The translations under genes were made by a program, and so were the position numbers. A stretch of DNA of 43,596 nucleotides from a phage: sequence record PX871048.2. One strand, given 5' to 3'. The notes beneath the pieces were generated by a model, which did no database searches, was not told the origin of the DNA, and saw nothing but the letters and a program-made list of their open reading frames with translations. How positions within the stretch are numbered: position 1 is the stretch's first letter; every line of letters begins with the position of its first letter. Shown here in pieces: positions 4,243 to 42,707 of the stretch.

Positions 4243-4604
4243 ATATTAATTCTTATACTGGGTTGCCGTACGATTTTCGCCGTCGTAATTGCTGGCACCA
4301 CGTGCGTAACGTTCGTACCGACGCTGGTCTTTTTACGCCAGAGTTTAACGTCGCTTCACCAACACAGATTAACGACGCCTTCGAAGAAGGCCATAAAGAC
4401 ACTAAAGGCCTCGTACGCGTAGAAACTCCGCAAAACTTCGATGCCGTGCTGATGGCGACACGGCACAGAAACCGTGTAATCTGGCACGCTGGCGTATATT
4501 ATGATGGTATGGTCAGTCATTGCGAGTTAGCAAGTCGCCAGGTACGGTTAGACCGACTGGAAGACTTGCGCGAAACTTATGCGGAGATAGAATTTTGGCG
4601 CTGA
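4239..4604 (+). CDS. tail assembly protein, possibly NlpC/P60-like (Cys/His motif NCWHH)
   Basis: 121-aa ORF overlapping neighbours by 4 nt; Cys and His residues spaced like a small peptidase domain; weak. Confidence 0.35.
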   Translation: MNINSYTGLPYDFRRRNCWHHVRNVRTDAGLFTPEFNVASPTQINDAFEEGHKDTKGLVRVETPQNFDAVLMATRHRNRVIWHAGVYYDGMVSHCELASRQVRLDRLEDLRETYAEIEFWR

Positions 4605-6184
4605 TATTACATTACACCCGTAACGAAGACGGTACTTTTGACCGCAAACGGTATAACGTACCTCCGATGGAATACGTCGTTGCTAACATCCCAGACGGGG
4701 TACCTGTGCGTATTTACCGCGGCGAGATTGGTGATGATACAGACGTAACGGAAAACTTCGAAGCGCTGAAAGAAGATGACGTTTTCCATATCATCGAGGG
4801 CGCTGGCGGCGGTGGTGGTTTTCTTGGTAAACTCCTGGACCCTTTGGGTGTGCTTAAATTTGTTACCAAGTTGATTTCTCCGTCGCAGAAAACGCCTAAA
4901 ACGAGTTTAGCGAACCAGCAGGCGGAGTCTCCAAACAACAGCCTGACGGACCGAAACAATAAACCGCGTCCGTATGAACGGTCGTATGATATTTGCGGCA
5001 GGGTCCAGACTATCCCTAATGACCTCATGACTACGTATAAGGTCTTCAATGACGCAGGTGTGGTAGTCGAATACGGCTACTATGACGCCGGTCGTGGGTA
5101 TCTTGATATTAAAGCCGAAGACATCACCGACGGCGATACTAAAGTGCAGGAGATTACAGGAACTTCTGTAGCGGTATACGCCCCATTTACATCCCCTAAC
5201 AATACAAATACGCCTCAGCTTCTGGTGGGGGACCCTATCAATCAGAATCTGTACATAACTATTGCCTCGAACGAGGTAGATGGGGCCGTTCTTAAAGCGC
5301 AGAACGATATCAGGGTTAATCCCAGTGATACCGGTGAGATTTCATTGCAGGGGGCAACTGGTGTCGTCCGCGATAACACTGGCGACTCTGCTTTCTCTGA
5401 GATTTTATCGGTTGGGGACATAGCTGTTTTTAACCTTATTCTGGTAAAAGACGTGGCTAACGTCAGTGGTAGCTATACTGTTACATACGTAGATGACTTT
5501 GAGGTAAGAGTAGCCGCCGGAGGGGTGTTGTCAGAATGGCAAAAATTGCCATCGGGGTTCACTCCTTTAACGCAAGGTACCGAAGCATGGATTTCACCGT
5601 CGAACACTTACGATAAGTCGTTAACGGACTGGACTACTTTAAACCGCCTGGAAGTTGAACGCGTAGTAGCCAACATCGCGGCCGCGAATGGTATGTATAA
5701 AGACAACGGCAGTAAATTGCGCACGTCGGTAACTGTCGAGCTTCAGTATCAACTCCTTGATGAAACTGGCGTGCCGTACGGGGATGTTTACTCAAAACAG
5801 GCCGTTATATCAGGTCGTTCTGCGGATTACACAGGTGTTACTATTTACGCCGACTTGCCCATGCGGTCGAAAGTTAGGGTACGGGCCCGCCGTGTTACTA
5901 ACCTTGACCTTAGTTTCGAGGGGACCGTGGTAGACGAGGTTTCCTACATCAACCTTTATGGGCAGGTACGCGACACTACACCGCATTACGGCAACCGTAC
6001 TACCGTGCACTCCGCACGTAAGCGGTACGCGACACTACACCGCATTACGGCAACCGTACTACCGTGCACTCCGCACGTAAGCAGACGCCGCGGGCCGCGG
6101 AGATTAAGCAGCCGCAACTACGTATGGTTGCCACAGAGATGGTGTACAAATACCTCGGCAACGGCGTATTCGACACGGTTATGA
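4520..6184 (+). CDS. large tail-tip / host-specificity protein, N-terminal part; frame broken by 59-bp tandem duplication
   Basis: ORF reads in frame through repeat copy 1 (..TTVHSARK) then enters out-of-frame sequence and stops at 6184; true start probably TTG about 4595 or ATG 4667 rather than 4520. Confidence 0.55.
   Translation: MRVSKSPGTVRPTGRLARNLCGDRILALILHYTRNEDGTFDRKRYNVPPMEYVVANIPDGVPVRIYRGEIGDDTDVTENFEALKEDDVFHIIEGAGGGGGFLGKLLDPLGVLKFVTKLISPSQKTPKTSLANQQAESPNNSLTDRNNKPRPYERSYDICGRVQTIPNDLMTTYKVFNDAGVVVEYGYYDAGRGYLDIKAEDITDGDTKVQEITGTSVAVYAPFTSPNNTNTPQLLVGDPINQNLYITIASNEVDGAVLKAQNDIRVNPSDTGEISLQGATGVVRDNTGDSAFSEILSVGDIAVFNLILVKDVANVSGSYTVTYVDDFEVRVAAGGVLSEWQKLPSGFTPLTQGTEAWISPSNTYDKSLTDWTTLNRLEVERVVANIAAANGMYKDNGSKLRTSVTVELQYQLLDETGVPYGDVYSKQAVISGRSADYTGVTIYADLPMRSKVRVRARRVTNLDLSFEGTVVDEVSYINLYGQVRDTTPHYGNRTTVHSARKRYATLHRITATVLPCTPHVSRRRGPRRLSSRNYVWLPQRWCTNTSATAYSTRL
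5965..6082 (+). repeat. perfect 59-bp tandem direct duplication (5965-6023 and 6024-6082)
   Basis: two adjacent identical 59-nt copies; flanking bases differ; 59 is not a multiple of 3. Confidence 0.9.
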
Positions 6185-7206
6185 CACCGAATACTCAGGC
6201 GATTCAGTCCTTAATCCGTCTTGCCCGCGACCCGGTAGTAGGTAATCTCAACCTAACCACATCCAATATGGACAAGTTGTTAGCGACTCAGAACGAGATA
6301 GAAAACTATTTCGGTAACGCAGAGGCTGGTCAATTCTGCTACACTTTTGACGATTATAAAATGACTATGCAGGACATAATCAGCACAATAGCCGACGCTA
6401 TTTTCTGCACACCATATCGTAAAGGGCAAGACATATTACTGGATTTCGAGCGCCCTCGTATGGGGCCGGAGATGGTATTCACCCACCGCAGCAAAACTAC
6501 CGCGGCGGAGAAGTGGACGCGCACGTTTAACGACGCACAGGTATACGATAGTCTCAAGTTTTCATACATCGACCCAGATACTAACGTCAAAGAGACTATT
6601 AGCATCCCGGCCGAAGGAGGTGTTAATACCGAAACGTACGACTCTAAGGGTATCCGTAACTATCGACAGGCGTACTGGGCAGCTTATCGACGTTACCAGA
6701 AAAACTTGTTGAAGAAAGTCACGGTGTCCTTTACGGCGACAGAAGAAGGAGTTTTTGTGCTGCCTGGTCGCGCAATAAGCGTCGTTAAAGGTTCGCGCGT
6801 AGCGCCTCAAGACGGCTATGTTGTTGCCGTTAATGGTCTTACTCTGACTTTATCACAGCCGGTTACTTTTACCCCCGGAGACGACCACTCATTGATTCTT
6901 AAGAAGCGTGACGGTGGTGTTCAAAGTGTTGCCGTTGTGCCCGGAAGCCACGACCGTGAAGTGGTTATGCTCTCTGCGCCTCAGGAGGCGATATACACAG
7001 GGAATAGCGCACTAAAAACTGAGTTTTCATTCGGCAACGAAGCAAGGCATAATGCTCAGATGATTCTTGTTTCTACAGTTGACCCTGGAGACGACAGAAC
7101 GGTTAAGATTACTGGGATTAACTACGAAGCAGATTTCTATAAATACGACGGCGTCGCACCTTTCGGTAGCGGTTTCTCCGGCGGATTCAGCAACGGTTTT
7201 AGTTAA
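6064..7206 (+). CDS. large tail-tip / host-specificity protein, C-terminal part (starts inside repeat copy 2)
   Basis: 380-aa ORF; its frame equals the frame of the upstream ORF if one repeat copy is deleted (..HSARKQTPRAAEIKQ..). Confidence 0.55.
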   Translation: MHSARKQTPRAAEIKQPQLRMVATEMVYKYLGNGVFDTVMTPNTQAIQSLIRLARDPVVGNLNLTTSNMDKLLATQNEIENYFGNAEAGQFCYTFDDYKMTMQDIISTIADAIFCTPYRKGQDILLDFERPRMGPEMVFTHRSKTTAAEKWTRTFNDAQVYDSLKFSYIDPDTNVKETISIPAEGGVNTETYDSKGIRNYRQAYWAAYRRYQKNLLKKVTVSFTATEEGVFVLPGRAISVVKGSRVAPQDGYVVAVNGLTLTLSQPVTFTPGDDHSLILKKRDGGVQSVAVVPGSHDREVVMLSAPQEAIYTGNSALKTEFSFGNEARHNAQMILVSTVDPGDDRTVKITGINYEADFYKYDGVAPFGSGFSGGFSNGFS

Positions 7207-14987: not shown

Positions 14988-15016
14988 AATATAATAGCTA
15001 ACTATTCAGGTGTCAA
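14988..15016 (-). promoter_or_regulatory. sigma70-type promoter, class II (TTGACA-17-TATATT) with AATAG-N4-CTATT palindrome
   Basis: minus-strand reading TTGACA CCTGAATAGTTAGCTAT TATATT; leader contains hairpin CCGGGAACTGCCCGG. Confidence 0.55.
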
Positions 15017-17543: not shown

Positions 17544-17572
17544 ACTATAATAGCGAACTATTCACTTGTCAA
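17544..17572 (-). promoter_or_regulatory. sigma70-type promoter, class II (TTGACA-17-TATAGT) with AATAG-N4-CTATT palindrome
   Basis: minus-strand reading TTGACA AGTGAATAGTTCGCTAT TATAGT; divergent from HTH regulator gene. Confidence 0.6.
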
Positions 17573-17591
17573 TGGGCTTTTCTAAAATAAT

Positions 17592-17605
17592 TAATATGGT
17601 ACTAT
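17592..17605 (+). promoter_or_regulatory. imperfect operator copy (AATAT-GGTA-CTATT) overlapping -10 TACTAT upstream of HTH gene
   Basis: shares TACTATTCA core with class I promoters; weak -35. Confidence 0.4.
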
Positions 17606-17636
17606 TCACATATCAACTAACTAAGGAGTAATTGAC

Positions 17637-20195: not shown

Positions 20196-20486
20196 TTAAC
20201 GTTTAGCCAGACATTCCATTAAATGTGAATATTTTCTGTAATAGCAAGGAACTAAATCACACCCAAAATAATGATAAACATAAGCCAAGTGGTCAGTAAC
20301 ATCTATAGCGGCTGACATTGTGCTAAGACGGCGAAGGCTAATCAACTGTAATTCTTCCGTAATGCAAAATGGTTCATACGTATCAAGTTTGCAAGAAACG
20401 TTAAAACACAGAGCATAGCCGTCTTGTGCGGAGTAGACCAGAAATGCGCTGTCGTTCTCTTTATCGTGAAAAATTACACCTTTCAT
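20196..20486 (-). CDS. hypothetical protein
   Basis: 96-aa ORF, ATGA-coupled to upstream HTH gene. Confidence 0.45.
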   Translation of the reverse strand: MKGVIFHDKENDSAFLVYSAQDGYALCFNVSCKLDTYEPFCITEELQLISLRRLSTMSAAIDVTDHLAYVYHYFGCDLVPCYYRKYSHLMECLAKR

Positions 20487-20653
20487 TTCACATTCTCCTT
20501 AACCCACGCTTCTACTTTATTTCGGTCAAACGTACCCGGCATACGGCGGCCCATTACTTTAACGCTGCAATCAGGAAACTTCCCGCTTTTAATCCAGTTA
20601 TTTATTGTCTGACGAGTAACTCCGATTAATTCTGCAACCTCGTTTATAGTCAT
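20483..20653 (-). CDS. AlpA/excisionase-like HTH DNA-binding protein
   Basis: MTINEVAELIGVTRQTINNWIKSGKFP; start set at ATG 20653 with AGGAG RBS (track start 20743 rejected). Confidence 0.55.
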   Translation of the reverse strand: MTINEVAELIGVTRQTINNWIKSGKFPDCSVKVMGRRMPGTFDRNKVEAWVKENVK

Positions 20654-20758
20654 TTCACGATCTCCTGTGTAAGATGTAGTGAAGTATAAAGCGGTAACTT
20701 TGTAAAAGCAACCAAAACAACACACAAAGCCACTAAGATACAAAAGATGCTACTGGGA

Positions 20759-20787
20759 TTGACTTTTACTTAAAAATGTGCTAAGCT
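20759..20787 (+). promoter_or_regulatory. promoter TTGACT-17-TGnTAAGCT (extended -10) driving structured element A
   Basis: same hexamers, spacing and TGn as the promoter at about 33037-33065. Confidence 0.45.
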
Positions 20788-20891
20788 TCACTGAGCTTGT
20801 GAGATATCGCAAGCGACCGCGGAGCGGCAGGGAACGCAACGCGTGCCATTAGGCACTTGAGTGTAGTTCCGCTGGCGCTTTCGGAAGGGCC
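20782..20891 (+). ncRNA. candidate structured RNA element A (paralog of 33060-33168)
   Basis: about 75 percent identical to copy B with conserved blocks GAGCTTGTGA, AAGCGACCGCGG, TTCGGAAGGGCC and a covarying hairpin GTGCC-ATTA-GGCAC vs GGAC-GTAA-GTCC; no ORF. Confidence 0.35.
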
Positions 20892-21066
20892 AAAGTCTAT
20901 TGTTAATCCCGCCTAAATACCCAAGTCACTGATAATTAAAGTTTCTATAGTTGCCGTAAGCGAGGTAGAGAGTACTTCACTCCGCTGTGGTGGGCTAACG
21001 CCCACCCACTGCGTTGCGTACTCTTTTAAGAAACGAAAGAATCACAACGGCAACGTAACTATTCTC

Positions 21067-21095
21067 TTGCACACCCCAACATAATAGGATACTAT
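21067..21095 (+). promoter_or_regulatory. sigma70-type promoter, class I (TTGCAC-17-TACTAT) with AATAG-N4-CTATT palindrome over -10
   Basis: TTGCAC ACCCCAACATAATAGGA TACTAT; identical 33-mer at 42676-42707 on minus. Confidence 0.65.
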
Positions 21096-30903: not shown

Positions 30904-30936
30904 AGAAAAAGGCCCCTTAAGGGGCCTTAGTTTTAT
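30904..30936. terminator. bidirectional terminator (perfect palindrome AAGGCCCCTTAAGGGGCCTT flanked by A/T runs)
   Basis: serves + portal gene and convergent minus moron gene. Confidence 0.7.
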
Positions 30937-31178
30937 CGCACTCTCATAAATAGCTTACCTTTGCGTTGCAACAAATCCATACCGACAGCACCTTCGCCAG
31001 ATTTGTTCGGACGGCGCATTAAACTAAAGTTCCATACTCTAGCTTTTGAAGCATCTTTCGCATTGCACACCCAAAGTCTACCATTTTCTCTTAGGTCAAA
31101 TAAGTCCGATATACTGAGATTATTAACCGGTATGAAACCGCCAATGAACTCACGTTCGCAACTAGGTAATTCCTGCAT
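30933..31178 (-). CDS. moron-like hypothetical protein (81 aa) antisense within late module
   Basis: own class I promoter and AGGAGGG RBS, own terminator. Confidence 0.5.
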   Translation of the reverse strand: MQELPSCEREFIGGFIPVNNLSISDLFDLRENGRLWVCNAKDASKARVWNFSLMRRPNKSGEGAVGMDLLQRKGKLFMRVR

Positions 31179-31203
31179 ACACCCTCCTGTTTAAGTTAAC
31201 TGA

Positions 31204-31232
31204 ATAGTACCCTATTATATTGGTGTCTGCAA
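31204..31232 (-). promoter_or_regulatory. sigma70-type promoter, class I variant (TTGCAG-17-TACTAT) with palindrome
   Basis: minus-strand reading TTGCAG ACACCAATATAATAGGG TACTAT. Confidence 0.6.
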
Positions 31233-31276
31233 ATATTATTTTTATGCGTTACACTGGCGATACTACAGGAGGGCAT

Positions 31277-32320
31277 ATGAGCTTACTTACATCCCTAATT
31301 AGCCACCAGATATGGCTACAACGCACCGCATCCGGCGAGGTGAAAGACCTTGCGCCGTTCATTCAGGAAATGCGGGACGAAATCAAACGGCAGGTGTTGC
31401 TGTTCGGCGACGACGGTCGCAGCACCGCGCGACTGAATAAACTGTTACGTGACCTCGAAGAAGCACTGACCGGGCTTACAGGCGACTGGCAAACGAAGCT
31501 GACAGAAGACCTAAAGGAACTGGCGGCGTATGAGGCCGAGTGGAACGTGAAGACACTGACGACTAACGTTAACGCGGAATTTGTTACGCCTACCGCCGAA
31601 CAGGTGTGGGCCGCTGCCGAGTTTCAGCCCTTATCATTAAGTGACAAGCCCGTTGATTTCGCCAAGCTGATGGATGGCTGGGGTGAAACAGAAGTATCGC
31701 GACTGGTAACTGGTGTTAAGATGGGTTTCGTTCAAGGCCAAACCACACGGCAGATTGTTAAAAATGTCGTTGGCGCTGGCGGACTGGCGGACATCTCTGA
31801 GCGCAACGCAGCTACGGTAACCCGCACCGCGCTGTCGCACATATCCAACGAAGCACGCAACGAGACGTACCGTCAGAACGACGACATCATCGAGAAATAT
31901 GAATGGGTATCGACGCTTGACAGCCGTACCAGTACGATTTGCAGAGCCAGGGACGGAATGACGTGGGAAATCGGTAAGGGGCCGATGCCCCCCGCCCATT
32001 TTGGCTGCCGAAGCACCACAGCACCTGTAATCAGTTCAGAATTCGACTTCCTCGATAAAGACGCAAAACGTGCAGCTAAGGGTGCGGACGGCGGAACTCA
32101 GGTAAGCGTGGACACCTCTTACTACGAGTTCCTAAAACAACAACCGGCATGGTTTCAGGATGAAGCACTCGGTCCTGTTCGCGGTAAGATTTTCCGCAAC
32201 AGCGGTATATCGCCGGAAGAGTTTCGCGTAATATCTGTAGATGGTTTCGGGAATCCGCTTACGCTTAAGCAGATGGCGGAACTCGATAAACGTGTTGCTG
32301 ATTATCTGAAAGGGGAATAA
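31277..32320 (+). CDS. head morphogenesis protein (Mu F-like minor head protein)
   Basis: position after portal; CxxC-like STICRARDG..HFGCRST; RBS CAGGAGGG. Confidence 0.6.
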   Translation: MSLLTSLISHQIWLQRTASGEVKDLAPFIQEMRDEIKRQVLLFGDDGRSTARLNKLLRDLEEALTGLTGDWQTKLTEDLKELAAYEAEWNVKTLTTNVNAEFVTPTAEQVWAAAEFQPLSLSDKPVDFAKLMDGWGETEVSRLVTGVKMGFVQGQTTRQIVKNVVGAGGLADISERNAATVTRTALSHISNEARNETYRQNDDIIEKYEWVSTLDSRTSTICRARDGMTWEIGKGPMPPAHFGCRSTTAPVISSEFDFLDKDAKRAAKGADGGTQVSVDTSYYEFLKQQPAWFQDEALGPVRGKIFRNSGISPEEFRVISVDGFGNPLTLKQMAELDKRVADYLKGE

Positions 32321-32781
32321 TGATGGGCTTTTTCAAAGTAACTGACGTACCTTCGCGTCGCGTTGTCCAGTTTGCTCGCGTGTCTGGCTCCGGTGAGAAC
32401 GTGGTGTCTATTGGGGACGAAAGTGTACTAGGTACGCCAGTAGATGATATGCCGTTTGCAGATAAGACCGGTATTGCGCTACCCGCCGCGGGGATGCTTT
32501 ACGAGATTCCGTATCTGGCTGACGCCGGCGACGTGTATTTCTCTGTGCAACCGCAGGACACGGAACTGGCAGACGGCAGCGCAACTATCACTGTCGAAGT
32601 TAAGGCGGGCAAAGCACCGTATGCGCTGACCTGGTACAAAGACGGGAAGGAAGTGGTAAATGCCCCTGAAGAGGCCTTGTCTCTGACAGTTAATGCGGTC
32701 GGCGAATACTTCGTTAAAGTTACTGATGCCGATGGTGTGGAGGCTGTTAGTAAAGCGGCGAAGGTCATTAAGCCAGAATAA
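32320..32781 (+). CDS. Ig-like domain protein (possible capsid decoration)
   Basis: C-terminal YALTWYKDGKEV..GEYFVKVTDADG resembles Ig-like domains. Confidence 0.45.
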   Translation: MMGFFKVTDVPSRRVVQFARVSGSGENVVSIGDESVLGTPVDDMPFADKTGIALPAAGMLYEIPYLADAGDVYFSVQPQDTELADGSATITVEVKAGKAPYALTWYKDGKEVVNAPEEALSLTVNAVGEYFVKVTDADGVEAVSKAAKVIKPE

Positions 32782-32784
32782 ACT

Positions 32785-32810
32785 GAAGCCCCGTTAAGGG
32801 GCTTTATTTC
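32785..32810. terminator. bidirectional terminator (AAGCCCC-GTTA-AGGGGCTT)
   Basis: hairpin plus T-rich tail; also ends the convergent minus small gene. Confidence 0.65.
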
Positions 32811-32819
32811 CATCAGAGT

Positions 32820-32915
32820 TCACCATTCCCCTCTATCTGCATCCTCAACCCCGCTAATAGCCCACACAAACAATCCTAAATTAACCAGTAACACAAATGA
32901 AATTGCTATCATCAT
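32820..32915 (-). CDS. small membrane peptide (31 aa), moron
   Basis: GGAGGTGG RBS then ATG; single TM; track start 33005 lies upstream of the promoter so internal ATG used. Confidence 0.45.
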   Translation of the reverse strand: MMIAISFVLLVNLGLFVWAISGVEDADRGEW

Positions 32916-32941
32916 AACCACCTCCACTAGGCATTTACTGA

Positions 32942-32970
32942 ATAGTACGCTATTATGTTGGGGTGTGCAA
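32942..32970 (-). promoter_or_regulatory. sigma70-type promoter, class I (TTGCAC-17-TACTAT) with palindrome
   Basis: minus-strand reading TTGCAC ACCCCAACATAATAGCG TACTAT. Confidence 0.65.
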
Positions 32971-33022
32971 ACTATTTGTTTACGTATTCCAGTTATTCCG
33001 CTCAATTGTAAATGTTGGAATA

Positions 33023-33038
33023 AACTATTCGAATAGTT
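33023..33038. promoter_or_regulatory. perfect 16-bp palindrome AACTATTCGAATAGTT (reversed half-site order) overlapping -35 of element B promoter
   Basis: exact inverted repeat. Confidence 0.5.
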
Positions 33039-33065
33039 GACTTTTCACTAAAAATATGATAAGCT
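33037..33065 (+). promoter_or_regulatory. promoter TTGACT-17-TGnTAAGCT driving structured element B
   Basis: same architecture as 20759-20787. Confidence 0.45.
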
Positions 33066-33168
33066 CCACCTGAGCTTGTGAAGTATGAACAAGCGACCGC
33101 GGCGCGGGCAGGTAACGGAGCGGGACGTAAGTCCTGAGTGTAGTTACGCTGACGCGTTCGGAAGGGCC
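33060..33168 (+). ncRNA. candidate structured RNA element B (paralog of 20782-20891)
   Basis: conserved blocks and compensatory stem changes relative to copy A; no ORF. Confidence 0.35.
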
Positions 33169-33243
33169 GTACCCTATTGCTTGTGTAAAAAGTAACTGGT
33201 TTACTGAGATTACGCCGTTTCTATGTTTAAATGATAAGGACTA

Positions 33244-33272
33244 GCGCCCCGCTTTATGGCGGGGCTTTACTT
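33244..33272 (+). terminator. rho-independent terminator (GCGCCCCGC-TTTATG-GCGGGGC plus T-rich)
   Basis: hairpin between element B and spanin start. Confidence 0.55.
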
Positions 33273-33289
33273 ATCGAGAAAGGAGAAAC

Positions 33290-33676
33290 ATGAATCTTAA
33301 AGCAACTGTCGTAGCGGGGGCATGTTTCATCATCCTGGCTTACGCACACGGCATCTACCAGTACCGCAGCGGCTGGAACGAAGGCCGGGCTAATCTAGCT
33401 TCACAGCAACAGCGGAAAGCACAGACCGAGTTAGCGAAGAAAACACAACGGCAGCAGCAGGACGAATCGAAGGCCGCGGCCGCTGACAACGAAGGCAAGA
33501 CGAAATCAGAGGTAATTACCCGTGAAGTCGTTAAGTACATTAAAACGCCTGGCCGCAGCGTGTGCACTTTCGACGATGCTCGCGTCCTGCTCAAGTCCCG
33601 CGCCGTCACCAACGCCAATTCCATCCCCGGATACGACAATGATGCAGCCGCCGTGCAAGCTGGCACCGCCAAGTAG
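33290..33676 (+). CDS. i-spanin (Rz-like)
   Basis: N-terminal TM (ATVVAGACFIILAYAHGIY), Q/K/E-rich periplasmic segment, overlapping lipoprotein gene in +1 frame; RBS AGGAG. Confidence 0.65.
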   Translation: MNLKATVVAGACFIILAYAHGIYQYRSGWNEGRANLASQQQRKAQTELAKKTQRQQQDESKAAAADNEGKTKSEVITREVVKYIKTPGRSVCTFDDARVLLKSRAVTNANSIPGYDNDAAAVQAGTAK

Positions 33677-33785
33677 CGACGCGGACGAGGATTTGGCTAT
33701 CGACGTTCAGAACGCCGAATGCGTACGGCAACTGAGACTGAAAGTGTTCATGTTGCAGGATTACGTGAGGAATATTCTGGAATAG
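33522..33785 (+). CDS. o-spanin (Rz1-like outer-membrane lipoprotein)
   Basis: GTG start after GAGGT RBS; signal peptide with lipobox LAS-C; Pro-rich mature part; overlaps and extends past the Rz-like gene. Confidence 0.65.
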   Translation: MKSLSTLKRLAAACALSTMLASCSSPAPSPTPIPSPDTTMMQPPCKLAPPSSDADEDLAIDVQNAECVRQLRLKVFMLQDYVRNILE

Positions 33786-33867
33786 TTGCCTTGCATGTTG
33801 GAATAATTTATTCTTGACATGTAAATCCGGGTGGCCCGGGTTCCAACGTCCAGGGGACATACTGACT

Positions 33868-34569
33868 ATGAATCGTTTTTTACGTTATCCGTTCCAGGAA
33901 GAAGCTGGGGCAGAAGATAAAGCCGGTGGCGGTGGCGCACCGAAAATGTTCACCGCTGAAGAAGTTCAGGCGCTGATTGAGAAAGAAGTCGCCGGGCTTA
34001 AGGCTAATCAGGAAGCGTTGCTGGCGGAGAAGAAAGAAGCCGCTCGCAAAGCAAAAGAGGCCGAAGAAGAACGGCAGCGCGCACACCAGGAGGCGTTAAA
34101 AGCCGCTGGTAAGATGGACGAGTTCGAAAAAACGATTCGTAGCCAGTATGACCCGGTGTTAGCCGAGAAAGATGGTCGCATCTCCAGAATGGCAGAGCGC
34201 ATCCTCGGCAGCGAACGTAAAGCGGTGTTAGGCTCTTTCGCGGGTGACTTTATCACCCCGGAAGCAGTGGACATCCTGGCTCCGTTCGTTAAGACTGAGT
34301 TTGAAGGCGATGACGTGGTTACTAAGTTTGTCGGCGCAGACGGCAACGTAATCACGACTGACCCGGAACAGTTCCGCAAATACCTGCGTGAACACAAAGC
34401 GTTTTCGCATTTGATTAAAGCAAATGCAGCTTCCGGCGGCGGGGCTTCCGGTAGCAAAGGCGGCGGGGCCGCACCAGCGTTTAAAGACATGAGCGAAGCG
34501 GAGCGTTTAGCTCTGTATAAATCGAACCCTGCCGAATTTGAACGGCAACTTAAAGCCCTGAGGAAATAA
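33868..34569 (+). CDS. scaffolding protein
   Basis: 234 aa, charged helical A/E/K-rich, immediately upstream of major capsid gene; start ATG 33868. Confidence 0.55.
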   Translation: MNRFLRYPFQEEAGAEDKAGGGGAPKMFTAEEVQALIEKEVAGLKANQEALLAEKKEAARKAKEAEEERQRAHQEALKAAGKMDEFEKTIRSQYDPVLAEKDGRISRMAERILGSERKAVLGSFAGDFITPEAVDILAPFVKTEFEGDDVVTKFVGADGNVITTDPEQFRKYLREHKAFSHLIKANAASGGGASGSKGGGAAPAFKDMSEAERLALYKSNPAEFERQLKALRK

Positions 34570-42675: not shown

Positions 42676-42707
42676 TGAATAGTATCCTATTATGTTGGGG
42701 TGTGCAA
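42676..42707 (-). promoter_or_regulatory. sigma70-type promoter, class I (TTGCAC-17-TACTAT), identical 33-mer to promoter at 21067
   Basis: minus-strand reading TTGCACACCCCAACATAATAGGATACTATTCAC. Confidence 0.65.

Follow-up and report, generated by a model that had tools for sequence, protein, structure and literature searches.

Accessory genes inserted between the conserved virion genes of a phage, and present or absent among its close relatives, are known from the lambdoid phages as morons (the Hendrix/Juhala concept, exemplified by HK97 gp15 and the genes of the P22 sieA locus), and mobile regulatory cassettes, the PeSLs, have been described in T4-type phages (Arbiol et al. 2010, PMC2839356; Comeau et al. 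2014, PMC4122927). Here we analyze a locus that resembles both. It is located in sequence record PX871048.2, a stretch of 43,596 nucleotides (nt), hereafter the window, from an Escherichia coli Kagunavirus (Guernseyvirinae) siphovirus of about 43 kb that is about 92% identical to K1H, M01, Bas70 and other phages. The locus consists of a promoter-like motif, a ribosome-binding site and an open reading frame (ORF) of 31 codons on the minus strand, antisense to the late operon, between the genes for a Hoc-like decoration protein and the Rz/Rz1 spanins. Sequence comparison gives good support to the assignment of this element to the morons and to the presence of a gene for a small membrane peptide; the broader reading, in which this optional accessory-gene cassette provides a peptide that is active at the cell envelope, is the one that we somewhat favor.

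As in the lambdoid morons, an extra gene is found between conserved virion genes in some close relatives and is absent from others, and it comes with a putative promoter (here, a motif with a 7/12 match to sigma-70) and a terminator of its own. Moreover, the cargo of morons often acts on membranes, as in exclusion, and homologues of a lipoprotein that accompanies the peptide in related phages are encoded in P22-type sieA loci. Unlike the lambdoid morons, the Kagunavirus cassette is antisense to the late operon, its promoter belongs to a repeated, phage-wide class instead of being individual, and its peptide resembles none of the known moron products in sequence. Furthermore, no lysogeny genes were reported in the relative Golestan (PMC7203180), so that expression would take place in lytic infection rather than from a prophage.

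The similarity to PeSLs lies in the repeated, conserved early-type promoter motifs and stem-loop terminators that flank small, functionally uncharacterized genes, in the apparent modular shuffling between sites and genomes (here, four cargo families found in both of two slots), and in the location of a few PeSLs within virion modules, next to hoc. However, the phage here is a 43-kb Guernseyvirinae siphovirus with about 5 copies of the motif, as opposed to about 50; its promoter is not a consensus sigma-70 promoter; the motif includes only a weak 5-bp AATAG/CTATT inverted repeat and no stable G/C-rich stem-loop; and the cargo has the promoter at one end and the terminator at the other, whereas in PeSLs the two form one composite element. 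The cassette is an analogue of the PeSLs and not one of them. In the strict sense, it is a member of neither group but works like both, and these are its closest known analogues. The phenomenon is well known and this case of it ordinary, with nothing that is categorically new.

The gene product also invites comparison with smaller systems. Larger membrane proteins are modulated by small inner-membrane proteins of bacteria and phages, about 30-50 amino acids (aa) in length, such as MgtS, AcrZ, CydX and SgrT. With 31-33 aa, one predicted transmembrane (TM) helix and a short charged tail, the peptide matches these proteins in architecture only and has no sequence similarity to them. Among siphoviruses, superinfection-exclusion lipoproteins include Llp of T5 and Cor of phi80/T1-like phages. 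Golestan-type phages, which are lytic siphoviruses, likewise encode a small lipoprotein, together with the peptide, behind one early-type promoter, but this lipoprotein has no detectable similarity to known families and is missing from the window. Kagunaviruses have been reported to depend on surface glycans and not on porins or FhuA (bioRxiv 10.1101/2024.09.12.612763). No match of the peptide to known exclusion proteins (SieA, Imm, Sp, gp15, Llp, Cor) was found in Pfam, PHROGs, PADLOC, NCBIfam or PDB.

The cassette slot and its promoter class

The loci of 30 IMG/VR relatives, retrieved via the Hoc-like protein, were compared. The length of the Hoc-Rz intergenic region varies from 339 to 1117 nt, with a constant 336-nt block adjoining Rz. 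Eight of the 30 loci lack both the promoter and any cargo, and there the intergenic region, which includes ...GGAATAATAACAGGCGCTAAAAAGCCCC..., measures 339-343 nt, as opposed to 507-1117 nt in cassette-bearing loci. An earlier reading of this DNA, made from the letters alone (hereafter the sequence-only reading), had proposed a moron-like insert inside the head gene cluster. Both points are borne out by the comparison: promoter and cargo are jointly present or absent between the same two genes, and the slot lies between the Hoc-like gene on one side and Rz/Rz1 and the scaffold gene on the other. Comparison with the empty slots puts the cassette junction directly after GGAATA (32990-32985). The features of the cassette and its surroundings are as follows.

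32805..32984, minus strand: cassette-specific DNA (the moron), with promoter, 5' untranslated region (UTR), peptide ORF and the relic of a downstream gene start; missing entirely in empty-slot relatives
32939..32970, minus strand: conserved promoter-class motif of about 32 nt, TTGCACACCCCAACATAATAGCGTACTATTCA, containing the −35 element TTGCAC, a 17-nt spacer and the −10 element TACTAT
32941..32954: inverted repeat AATAG-N4-CTATT, read from the sequence, overlapping the −10 hexamer; putative operator
32918..32925, minus strand: Shine-Dalgarno sequence GGAGGTGG, with the GGAGG core 5 nt before the ATG, a spacing equal to that in the Golestan-type homologue
32820..32915, minus strand: peptide ORF, 31 codons and TGA, MMIAISFVLLVNLGLFVWAISGVEDADRGEW; ATG at 32915, stop at 32822-32820
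32828..32831, minus strand: GGGG run with one G more than in four metagenomic contigs (L047-L050, GGG), altering and shortening the C-terminus
32811..32824, minus strand: relic GGTGA...ATG(G)AAATAAAG, equivalent to the Shine-Dalgarno sequence and start (ATGAAATA...) of the lipoprotein gene, fused to the terminator
32786..32804: bidirectional terminator hairpin AAGCCCC-TTAAC-GGGGCTT, common to the cassette and the convergent Hoc-like gene
30933..31232, minus strand: sister antisense cassette (slot 1, portal/MuF) with a promoter of the same class (31232-31204) and an 81-aa ORF (31178-30933)
31220-32320: MuF-like head morphogenesis gene
32320-32781, plus strand: Hoc-like decoration gene, convergent with the peptide cassette
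33290-33785: Rz/Rz1 spanin genes, separated from the Hoc-like gene by a 508-nt gap
33814-34569: scaffold gene, followed by the major capsid protein gene

In the cassette-bearing relatives, at least 12 unrelated cargos are found behind the same promoter and Shine-Dalgarno sequence. Among them are a 33-aa peptide, either alone or followed by a lipoprotein of 114 aa; soluble proteins with lengths of 57, 67, 81, 83 and 94 aa; a signal-anchored protein of 70-75 aa; a 173-aa clamp-like protein (phrog_3007); and a 242-aa N6/N4 DNA methyltransferase (PF01555, 6e-30), and some of the cargos are sets of two or three genes. The cassette had been described as the second antisense one in the window, and the other, at 30933-31232, is indeed there, with a promoter of the same class. 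Slot 1 is variable among relatives as well. Its 81-aa protein in the window, which has no family match, occupies the Hoc/Rz slot (slot 2) in two other loci (L006 and L021), and for four cargo families (the 81-aa, 173-aa and 61-aa proteins and the methyltransferase), representatives occur in slot 1 as well as slot 2, in different genomes. We propose that the cassette is a self-contained unit, with its own copy of the promoter, a short 5' UTR and a shared terminator that would prevent read-through into the late genes. The promoter/UTR and the terminator would then serve as portable flanks between which unrelated cargos are exchanged, both between phages and between the two slots.

Two antisense slots with a common promoter class show how small lytic siphoviruses gain and swap accessory genes within rigid structural modules. 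The cargos include methyltransferases and membrane proteins and, probably, counter-defense genes. Kagunavirus phages already serve in synthetic biology and phage therapy; the swapping of slot contents is relevant to predicting host range and exclusion among therapeutic isolates, and the slot itself is a natural 'landing pad' for engineering.

The promoter elements, TTGCAC-17-TACTAT on the minus strand, are located where they had been placed, with the −35 hexamer at 32970-32965 and the −10 hexamer at 32947-32942. For a 29-nt pattern built on this promoter, 1.08 matches would be expected in the window and 7 are observed, a number reached in none of 100 shuffles; five of these are near-identical full copies of about 32-37 nt, at 21067(+), 22372(+), 31232(−), 32970(−) and 42707(−). 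It is this repetition that sets the promoter off from chance, and the motif is also conserved in relatives: it is conserved across the genus Kagunavirus and present in most genomes. In fBC-Eco01 and Golestan, a motif identified by PHIRE, with seven copies in each genome and the consensus tgAATAGTa-ccTATTat-T, has been annotated as 'phage promoter' (PMC9825357, PMC7203180), and the fBC-Eco01-type PHIRE promoter is annotated at the place equivalent to 32939..32970. The two plus-strand copies in the window precede runs of small early-type ORFs, the copy at 42707 precedes an operon that encodes an exonuclease, a polynucleotide kinase and a dNMP kinase, and the copy at 31232 precedes the antisense ORF of slot 1. 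The description of this promoter as early-class agrees with its association with small early-type ORFs and the DNA-metabolism operon, and goes as far as that association does; judging from the sequence context, both promoter activity and early timing are probable.

The inverted repeat over the −10 hexamer is possibly an operator. A perfect 16-nt palindrome, AACTATTCGAATAGTT, is located at 33023-33038, 53 nt from the cassette promoter, where it abuts the −35 element of a non-coding block (block B, described below), and its AATAG/CTATT half-sites recur as the inverted repeat over the −10 element in each early-class promoter copy. A helix-turn-helix protein of 86 aa is encoded at 20483-20743 (−). 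The palindrome and the −10 inverted repeats may constitute a common operator for a phage regulator. Partial copies of the motif, ATAATAG..ACTATTCA, without the TTGCAC −35 element, were observed at 14991-15008, 17547-17564 and 17591-17608, all three on the plus strand within the region of minus-strand replication genes; the copy at 17591 has AAGGAG and an ATG downstream. The embedded (C/T)ATAAT was considered as an alternative −10 element and rejected: no −35 element is suitably spaced from it, and the copies differ in their upstream sequence.

The peptide family and its lipoprotein partner

Downstream of the promoter, the ribosome-binding site, the ATG, the 31-codon ORF and the terminator follow on the minus strand in the order that the sequence-only reading had given. 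The 5' UTR is about 20 nt long, with a strong, exposed Shine-Dalgarno sequence. Upstream GTG and TTG starts, which would yield proteins of 35 and 61 aa, lack a Shine-Dalgarno sequence and lie upstream of or inside the promoter/UTR, and were rejected. The prediction of one hydrophobic helix agrees with the Kyte-Doolittle maximum of 2.46 (over 19 residues), which greatly exceeds the threshold normally applied to TM segments; an acidic tail comes after it, and insertion of the peptide into the membrane appears likely. The terminator hairpin begins 15 nt past the peptide stop, and the Hoc-like gene ends 5 nt before the hairpin. In accord with a bidirectional terminator, it folds well on both strands (−13.9 kcal/mol, z = −2.9, on the minus strand; −15.5 kcal/mol, z = −4.3, on the plus strand), and it is a member of a terminator family that is repeated in the genome. 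The minus-strand U-tract past the hairpin is weak in the window (CAGUUUAUU); close relatives have UUUUAUCAUU.

The peptide family is confined to Kagunavirus, where its members are 33 aa long, end in GNGEL and form two lineages, a K1H-type lineage, in which the peptide stands alone, and a Golestan-type lineage. By DNA search, the peptide ORF was detected in K1H and otherwise only in the low-quality M01/AMO_3701M records; these are full of indels, with fragmented neighboring genes, and were left out as a third carrier. In this regard, OR061069.1 (phage M01) and PQ474795.1 are both 45,294-bp records with many indels that fragment the head morphogenesis and major capsid genes, and they are unfit for frame-level comparison. 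At the protein level, 11 more members were found in Golestan-type phages, each a 33-aa peptide, 39-43% identical, that has an equal start spacing and is located at the same position. In a collection of about 15 billion proteins, the two types form clusters of 8 and 14 variants on about 50 and about 140 contigs, respectively, all of them gene-caller predictions, and the 61-aa TTG-extended ORF retrieved the K1H-type cluster only. There was no match to the peptide in 5,426 complete E. coli genomes.

Only about 5% of the genomes carry the peptide (2 of the 30 IMG/VR loci and about 15 of 330 phage records), whereas the promoter is present in most of them. The expectation that the peptide would be conserved wherever the promoter is, which had been put forward as a check on the gene, is therefore literally not borne out. 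The rarity of the peptide behind the promoter indicates, however, that the promoter is a generic driver of cassettes and the peptide one optional cargo among others, and it does not make the ORF spurious.

The evidence that the ORF is a genuine coding gene comes from the comparison of the two lineages. Synonymous differences between them are saturated (pS = 0.71), with pN = 0.30 and dN/dS of about 0.18; the differences at codon positions 1, 2 and 3 number 12, 8 and 19, respectively, and the other two frames are full of stops. Residues I5, S6, V8, V11, F16, W18, A19, S21, G22, D27 and G29 are kept across the lineages. A short non-coding or antisense transcript with an accidental ORF could be imagined, given that the ORF is very short, is unannotated in K1H and is lacking from most promoter-bearing genomes. 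Nevertheless, the frame is open and the start spacing equal in two lineages that are saturated at silent sites, and the hairpin stops the transcript short of the Hoc coding sequence, which leaves no antisense target, so that we regard this explanation as extremely improbable.

In Golestan-type cassettes, the stop codon of the peptide gene overlaps by 4 nt (ATGA) the start of the gene for the 114-aa lipoprotein (lipobox LSGC), and the two genes would be translationally coupled. A possible 25-aa hydrophobic ORF, without a Pfam, PHROG, PADLOC, NCBIfam or PDB match, follows the lipoprotein gene. Past its stop, the stand-alone cassette reads GGTGAACT.TGATGAAA(A)ATAA, which corresponds to the lipoprotein Shine-Dalgarno sequence and first codons joined directly to the terminator. 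Most simply, the version in the window and K1H would be a deletion derivative that keeps only the peptide.

The overlap raises the question whether the peptide sequence matters at all. The ORF might be a leader that feeds ribosomes to, or regulates, the overlapping lipoprotein gene and is inert by itself, and not only the 4-nt overlap but also the unequal conservation of the ORF would fit, given that the last 18 nt, which bear the lipoprotein Shine-Dalgarno sequence, are identical at 16 of 18 positions between the lineages while the remainder has diverged. However, the dN/dS of about 0.18 and the pattern of residues kept across lineages argue that the protein sequence is important, the lipoprotein gene has a Shine-Dalgarno sequence of its own, the lipoprotein is found without the peptide in prophages and in CP088689.1, and the peptide spreads alone; we therefore consider a mere leader improbable.

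The lipoprotein is a member of an unnamed family whose core, GKNVALGVTGAFLIVPLFFMD, is invariant, and its AlphaFold model (mean pLDDT 62.5) is too poor for a fold search. Homologues with about 40% identity are encoded in P22-like prophages directly after the ejection gene 16 and before mnt/arc, and in P22 itself the position after gene 16 is occupied by sieA, the superinfection exclusion gene. The presence of these homologues at the sieA locus lends indirect support to an exclusion or envelope role. In four P22-like prophages of Citrobacter and relatives (L052-L055, 2501-2872), the lipoprotein at the sieA position is 117-123 aa long. Elsewhere, members of the family reach 160 aa. The family has an invariant LGVTGAFLIVPLFFMD core and two conserved cysteines and no Pfam assignment; a small Rep3 plasmid (L051) also encodes a member, as do diverse bacteria. 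The sole 'plasmid' match is a Kagunavirus genome, CP088689.1 ('plasmid pC16EC0033-2', 44,086 bp, deposited as circular, from a human blood isolate of E. coli), which is complete and carries a Golestan-type cassette.

The window allele and the possible role of the peptide

Apart from the GGG, the ORF in the four metagenomic contigs L047-L050 is identical to that in the window, and its product is MMIAISFVLLVNLGLFVWAISGVEDADRGNGEL (...DADRGNGEL). Because of the extra G, the tail of the window allele, ...GEW (31 aa), replaces the conserved ...GNGEL (33 aa), with 29 of the 33 residues unchanged. The exact 31-aa sequence is not found in the collection of about 15 billion proteins, and the extra G is either a mutation or a homopolymer error. 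This altered tail was missed by the sequence-only reading, as was the resemblance of the window allele to the remainder of a peptide-plus-lipoprotein cassette. Whether the frameshifted 31-aa allele would still be active is, on the available sequence, an even bet.

In aligned sequences of ten K1H-type contigs, the average divergence is 0.2% in the ORF, 2.8% in the promoter/UTR, 7.5% in the terminator and 9.1% in the adjacent 3' coding sequence of the Hoc-like gene. The near-identity of the ORF across backbones that have diverged next door indicates that the cassette recently moved between backbones as an intact unit. Such a recent intact spread would be more in keeping with a gene that is useful, or at any rate harmless, than with one in decay.

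The main competing explanation is precisely such decay. Under this scenario, the lipoprotein, as the real effector, has been deleted, and the peptide gene is a neutral remnant, damaged by the frameshift and useless to the phage. The lipoprotein Shine-Dalgarno sequence and the ATGAAATA start that persist fused to the terminator are what such a deletion would leave behind, the extra G destroys the GNGEL tail, the metagenomic stand-alone variants include the disruptive W18R and G22E changes and a 7-aa duplication, and a second lesion private to the window, a tandem duplication of 59 nt, breaks the frame of a tail gene. Yet, the stand-alone cassette is common, with 69 blocks of the protein collection indexed for its main variant by itself, and its near-identity across backbones that differ by 9% next door resembles recent horizontal spread and not slow decay. 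In the window itself, the promoter, the Shine-Dalgarno sequence, the start codon and the whole TM helix are intact, and 29 of the 33 residues are unchanged. We consider a decaying remnant possible but clearly less probable than an active cassette gene.

Several observations weigh against an active envelope peptide. The GNGEL tail, which is kept in both lineages, is lost in the window allele, and the stand-alone clade has 6 segregating sites, too few to show selection. The promoter hexamers match the sigma-70 consensus at 7 of 12 positions only, a mediocre score, and the TTGCAC/TACTAT promoter was not reported by a generic promoter scan. When 1.84 billion representatives were searched exhaustively with a profile, no homologue of the peptide emerged beyond the two Kagunavirus clusters, and Pfam, PHROG, PADLOC, NCBIfam and PDB likewise yielded none, so that its function has to be read from the context. 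The sieA-locus argument is one of position only, the prophage homologues of the lipoprotein have no peptide upstream, and in CP088689.1 the lipoprotein is intact while ACG replaces the ATG of the peptide.

With these points taken into account, the reading that we favor can be formulated as follows. The peptide, a single TM helix with a short acidic tail, would be made early by the host RNA polymerase and reside in the inner membrane, where it would act at the cell envelope, most likely by hindering the entry of superinfecting phage DNA or by modulating a host membrane protein. An envelope or exclusion function can be suggested only tentatively from the context of the gene; exclusion or host modulation, the roles that had been proposed for small membrane peptides in such positions, is plausible, if on the doubtful side. 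A bolder version of this proposal, which we consider rather unlikely, holds that the stand-alone 33-aa peptide is an inner-membrane effector of a new family that recently swept through diverged Kagunavirus backbones by recombination and blocks competing phages or disables a host membrane protein or defense, with the flanks representing a dedicated cassette-exchange system analogous to that of PeSLs. If active, the peptide would be among the smallest phage-encoded membrane effectors, and its 33 codons make it easy to test.

The proximity of the spanin genes, together with a size and hydrophobicity like those of type I toxins, might instead suggest a toxic or lysis-related peptide, that is, either a type I toxin-like peptide under the control of an antisense RNA or a modulator of the holin/antiholin type that functions with Rz/Rz1. 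A promoter-like sequence on the plus strand, TAGGCA-17-TATTAT (32928-32956), overlaps the 5' end of the gene. This sequence is, however, the sole plus-strand site from which a conserved overlapping antisense RNA could be expected, and it is not conserved in K1H, Bas70 or other relatives; we rejected it as a chance match, and there was no Rfam match. In addition, the 5' UTR of about 20 nt with its strong, exposed Shine-Dalgarno sequence is unlike those of type I toxin mRNAs. Co-transcription with lysis genes, as in holin/antiholin systems, would not be expected, given that the cassette is on the strand opposite to Rz/Rz1, behind a promoter of the early/DNA-metabolism class. The same slot holds non-lysis cargos, including cytoplasmic enzymes, in other phages, which makes the position uninformative with respect to lysis, and no PHROG lysis matches were found. 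A toxic or lysis function is thus highly unlikely.

Neighboring sequences and other observations

The tail-gene lesion is a perfect 59-nt tandem duplication at 5965-6082 that is private to the window and splits the tail gene into ORFs 4520-6184 and 6064-7206. Deletion of one copy restores a single 875-aa tail ORF, and all relatives examined have a single copy; the duplication would be a disabling mutation if real, and otherwise an artifact of the assembly.

Searches of the window and of the region 32700-33400 for tRNA and Rfam families yielded no match, and neither did an Rfam comparison of two paralogous non-coding blocks at 33037-33265 (+), denoted block B above, and 20759-21006 (+). An ORF of 36 aa inside block B, at 33085-33195 (+), is annotated as 'hypothetical protein' in several relatives, but its frame is not conserved (some relatives have a net change of −1 nt, and the paralogue contains indels), and it is probably non-coding. 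The blocks themselves are conserved genus-wide. Both begin with TTGACT-17-TGnTAAGCT (33037/33060 and 20759/20782) and continue with GC-rich sequence for about 130 nt, and block B terminates in an intrinsic terminator at 33246-33265, immediately before Rz. Their consensus fold contains a long stem of 25 pairs, with two compensatory changes between the paralogues, and an apical hairpin in which the structure is kept while the sequence differs (GGGAC-GUAA-GUCCU versus GUGCC-AUUA-GGCAC). The paired blocks may represent a cis-acting leader or an antitermination-type RNA that opens two rightward transcription units.

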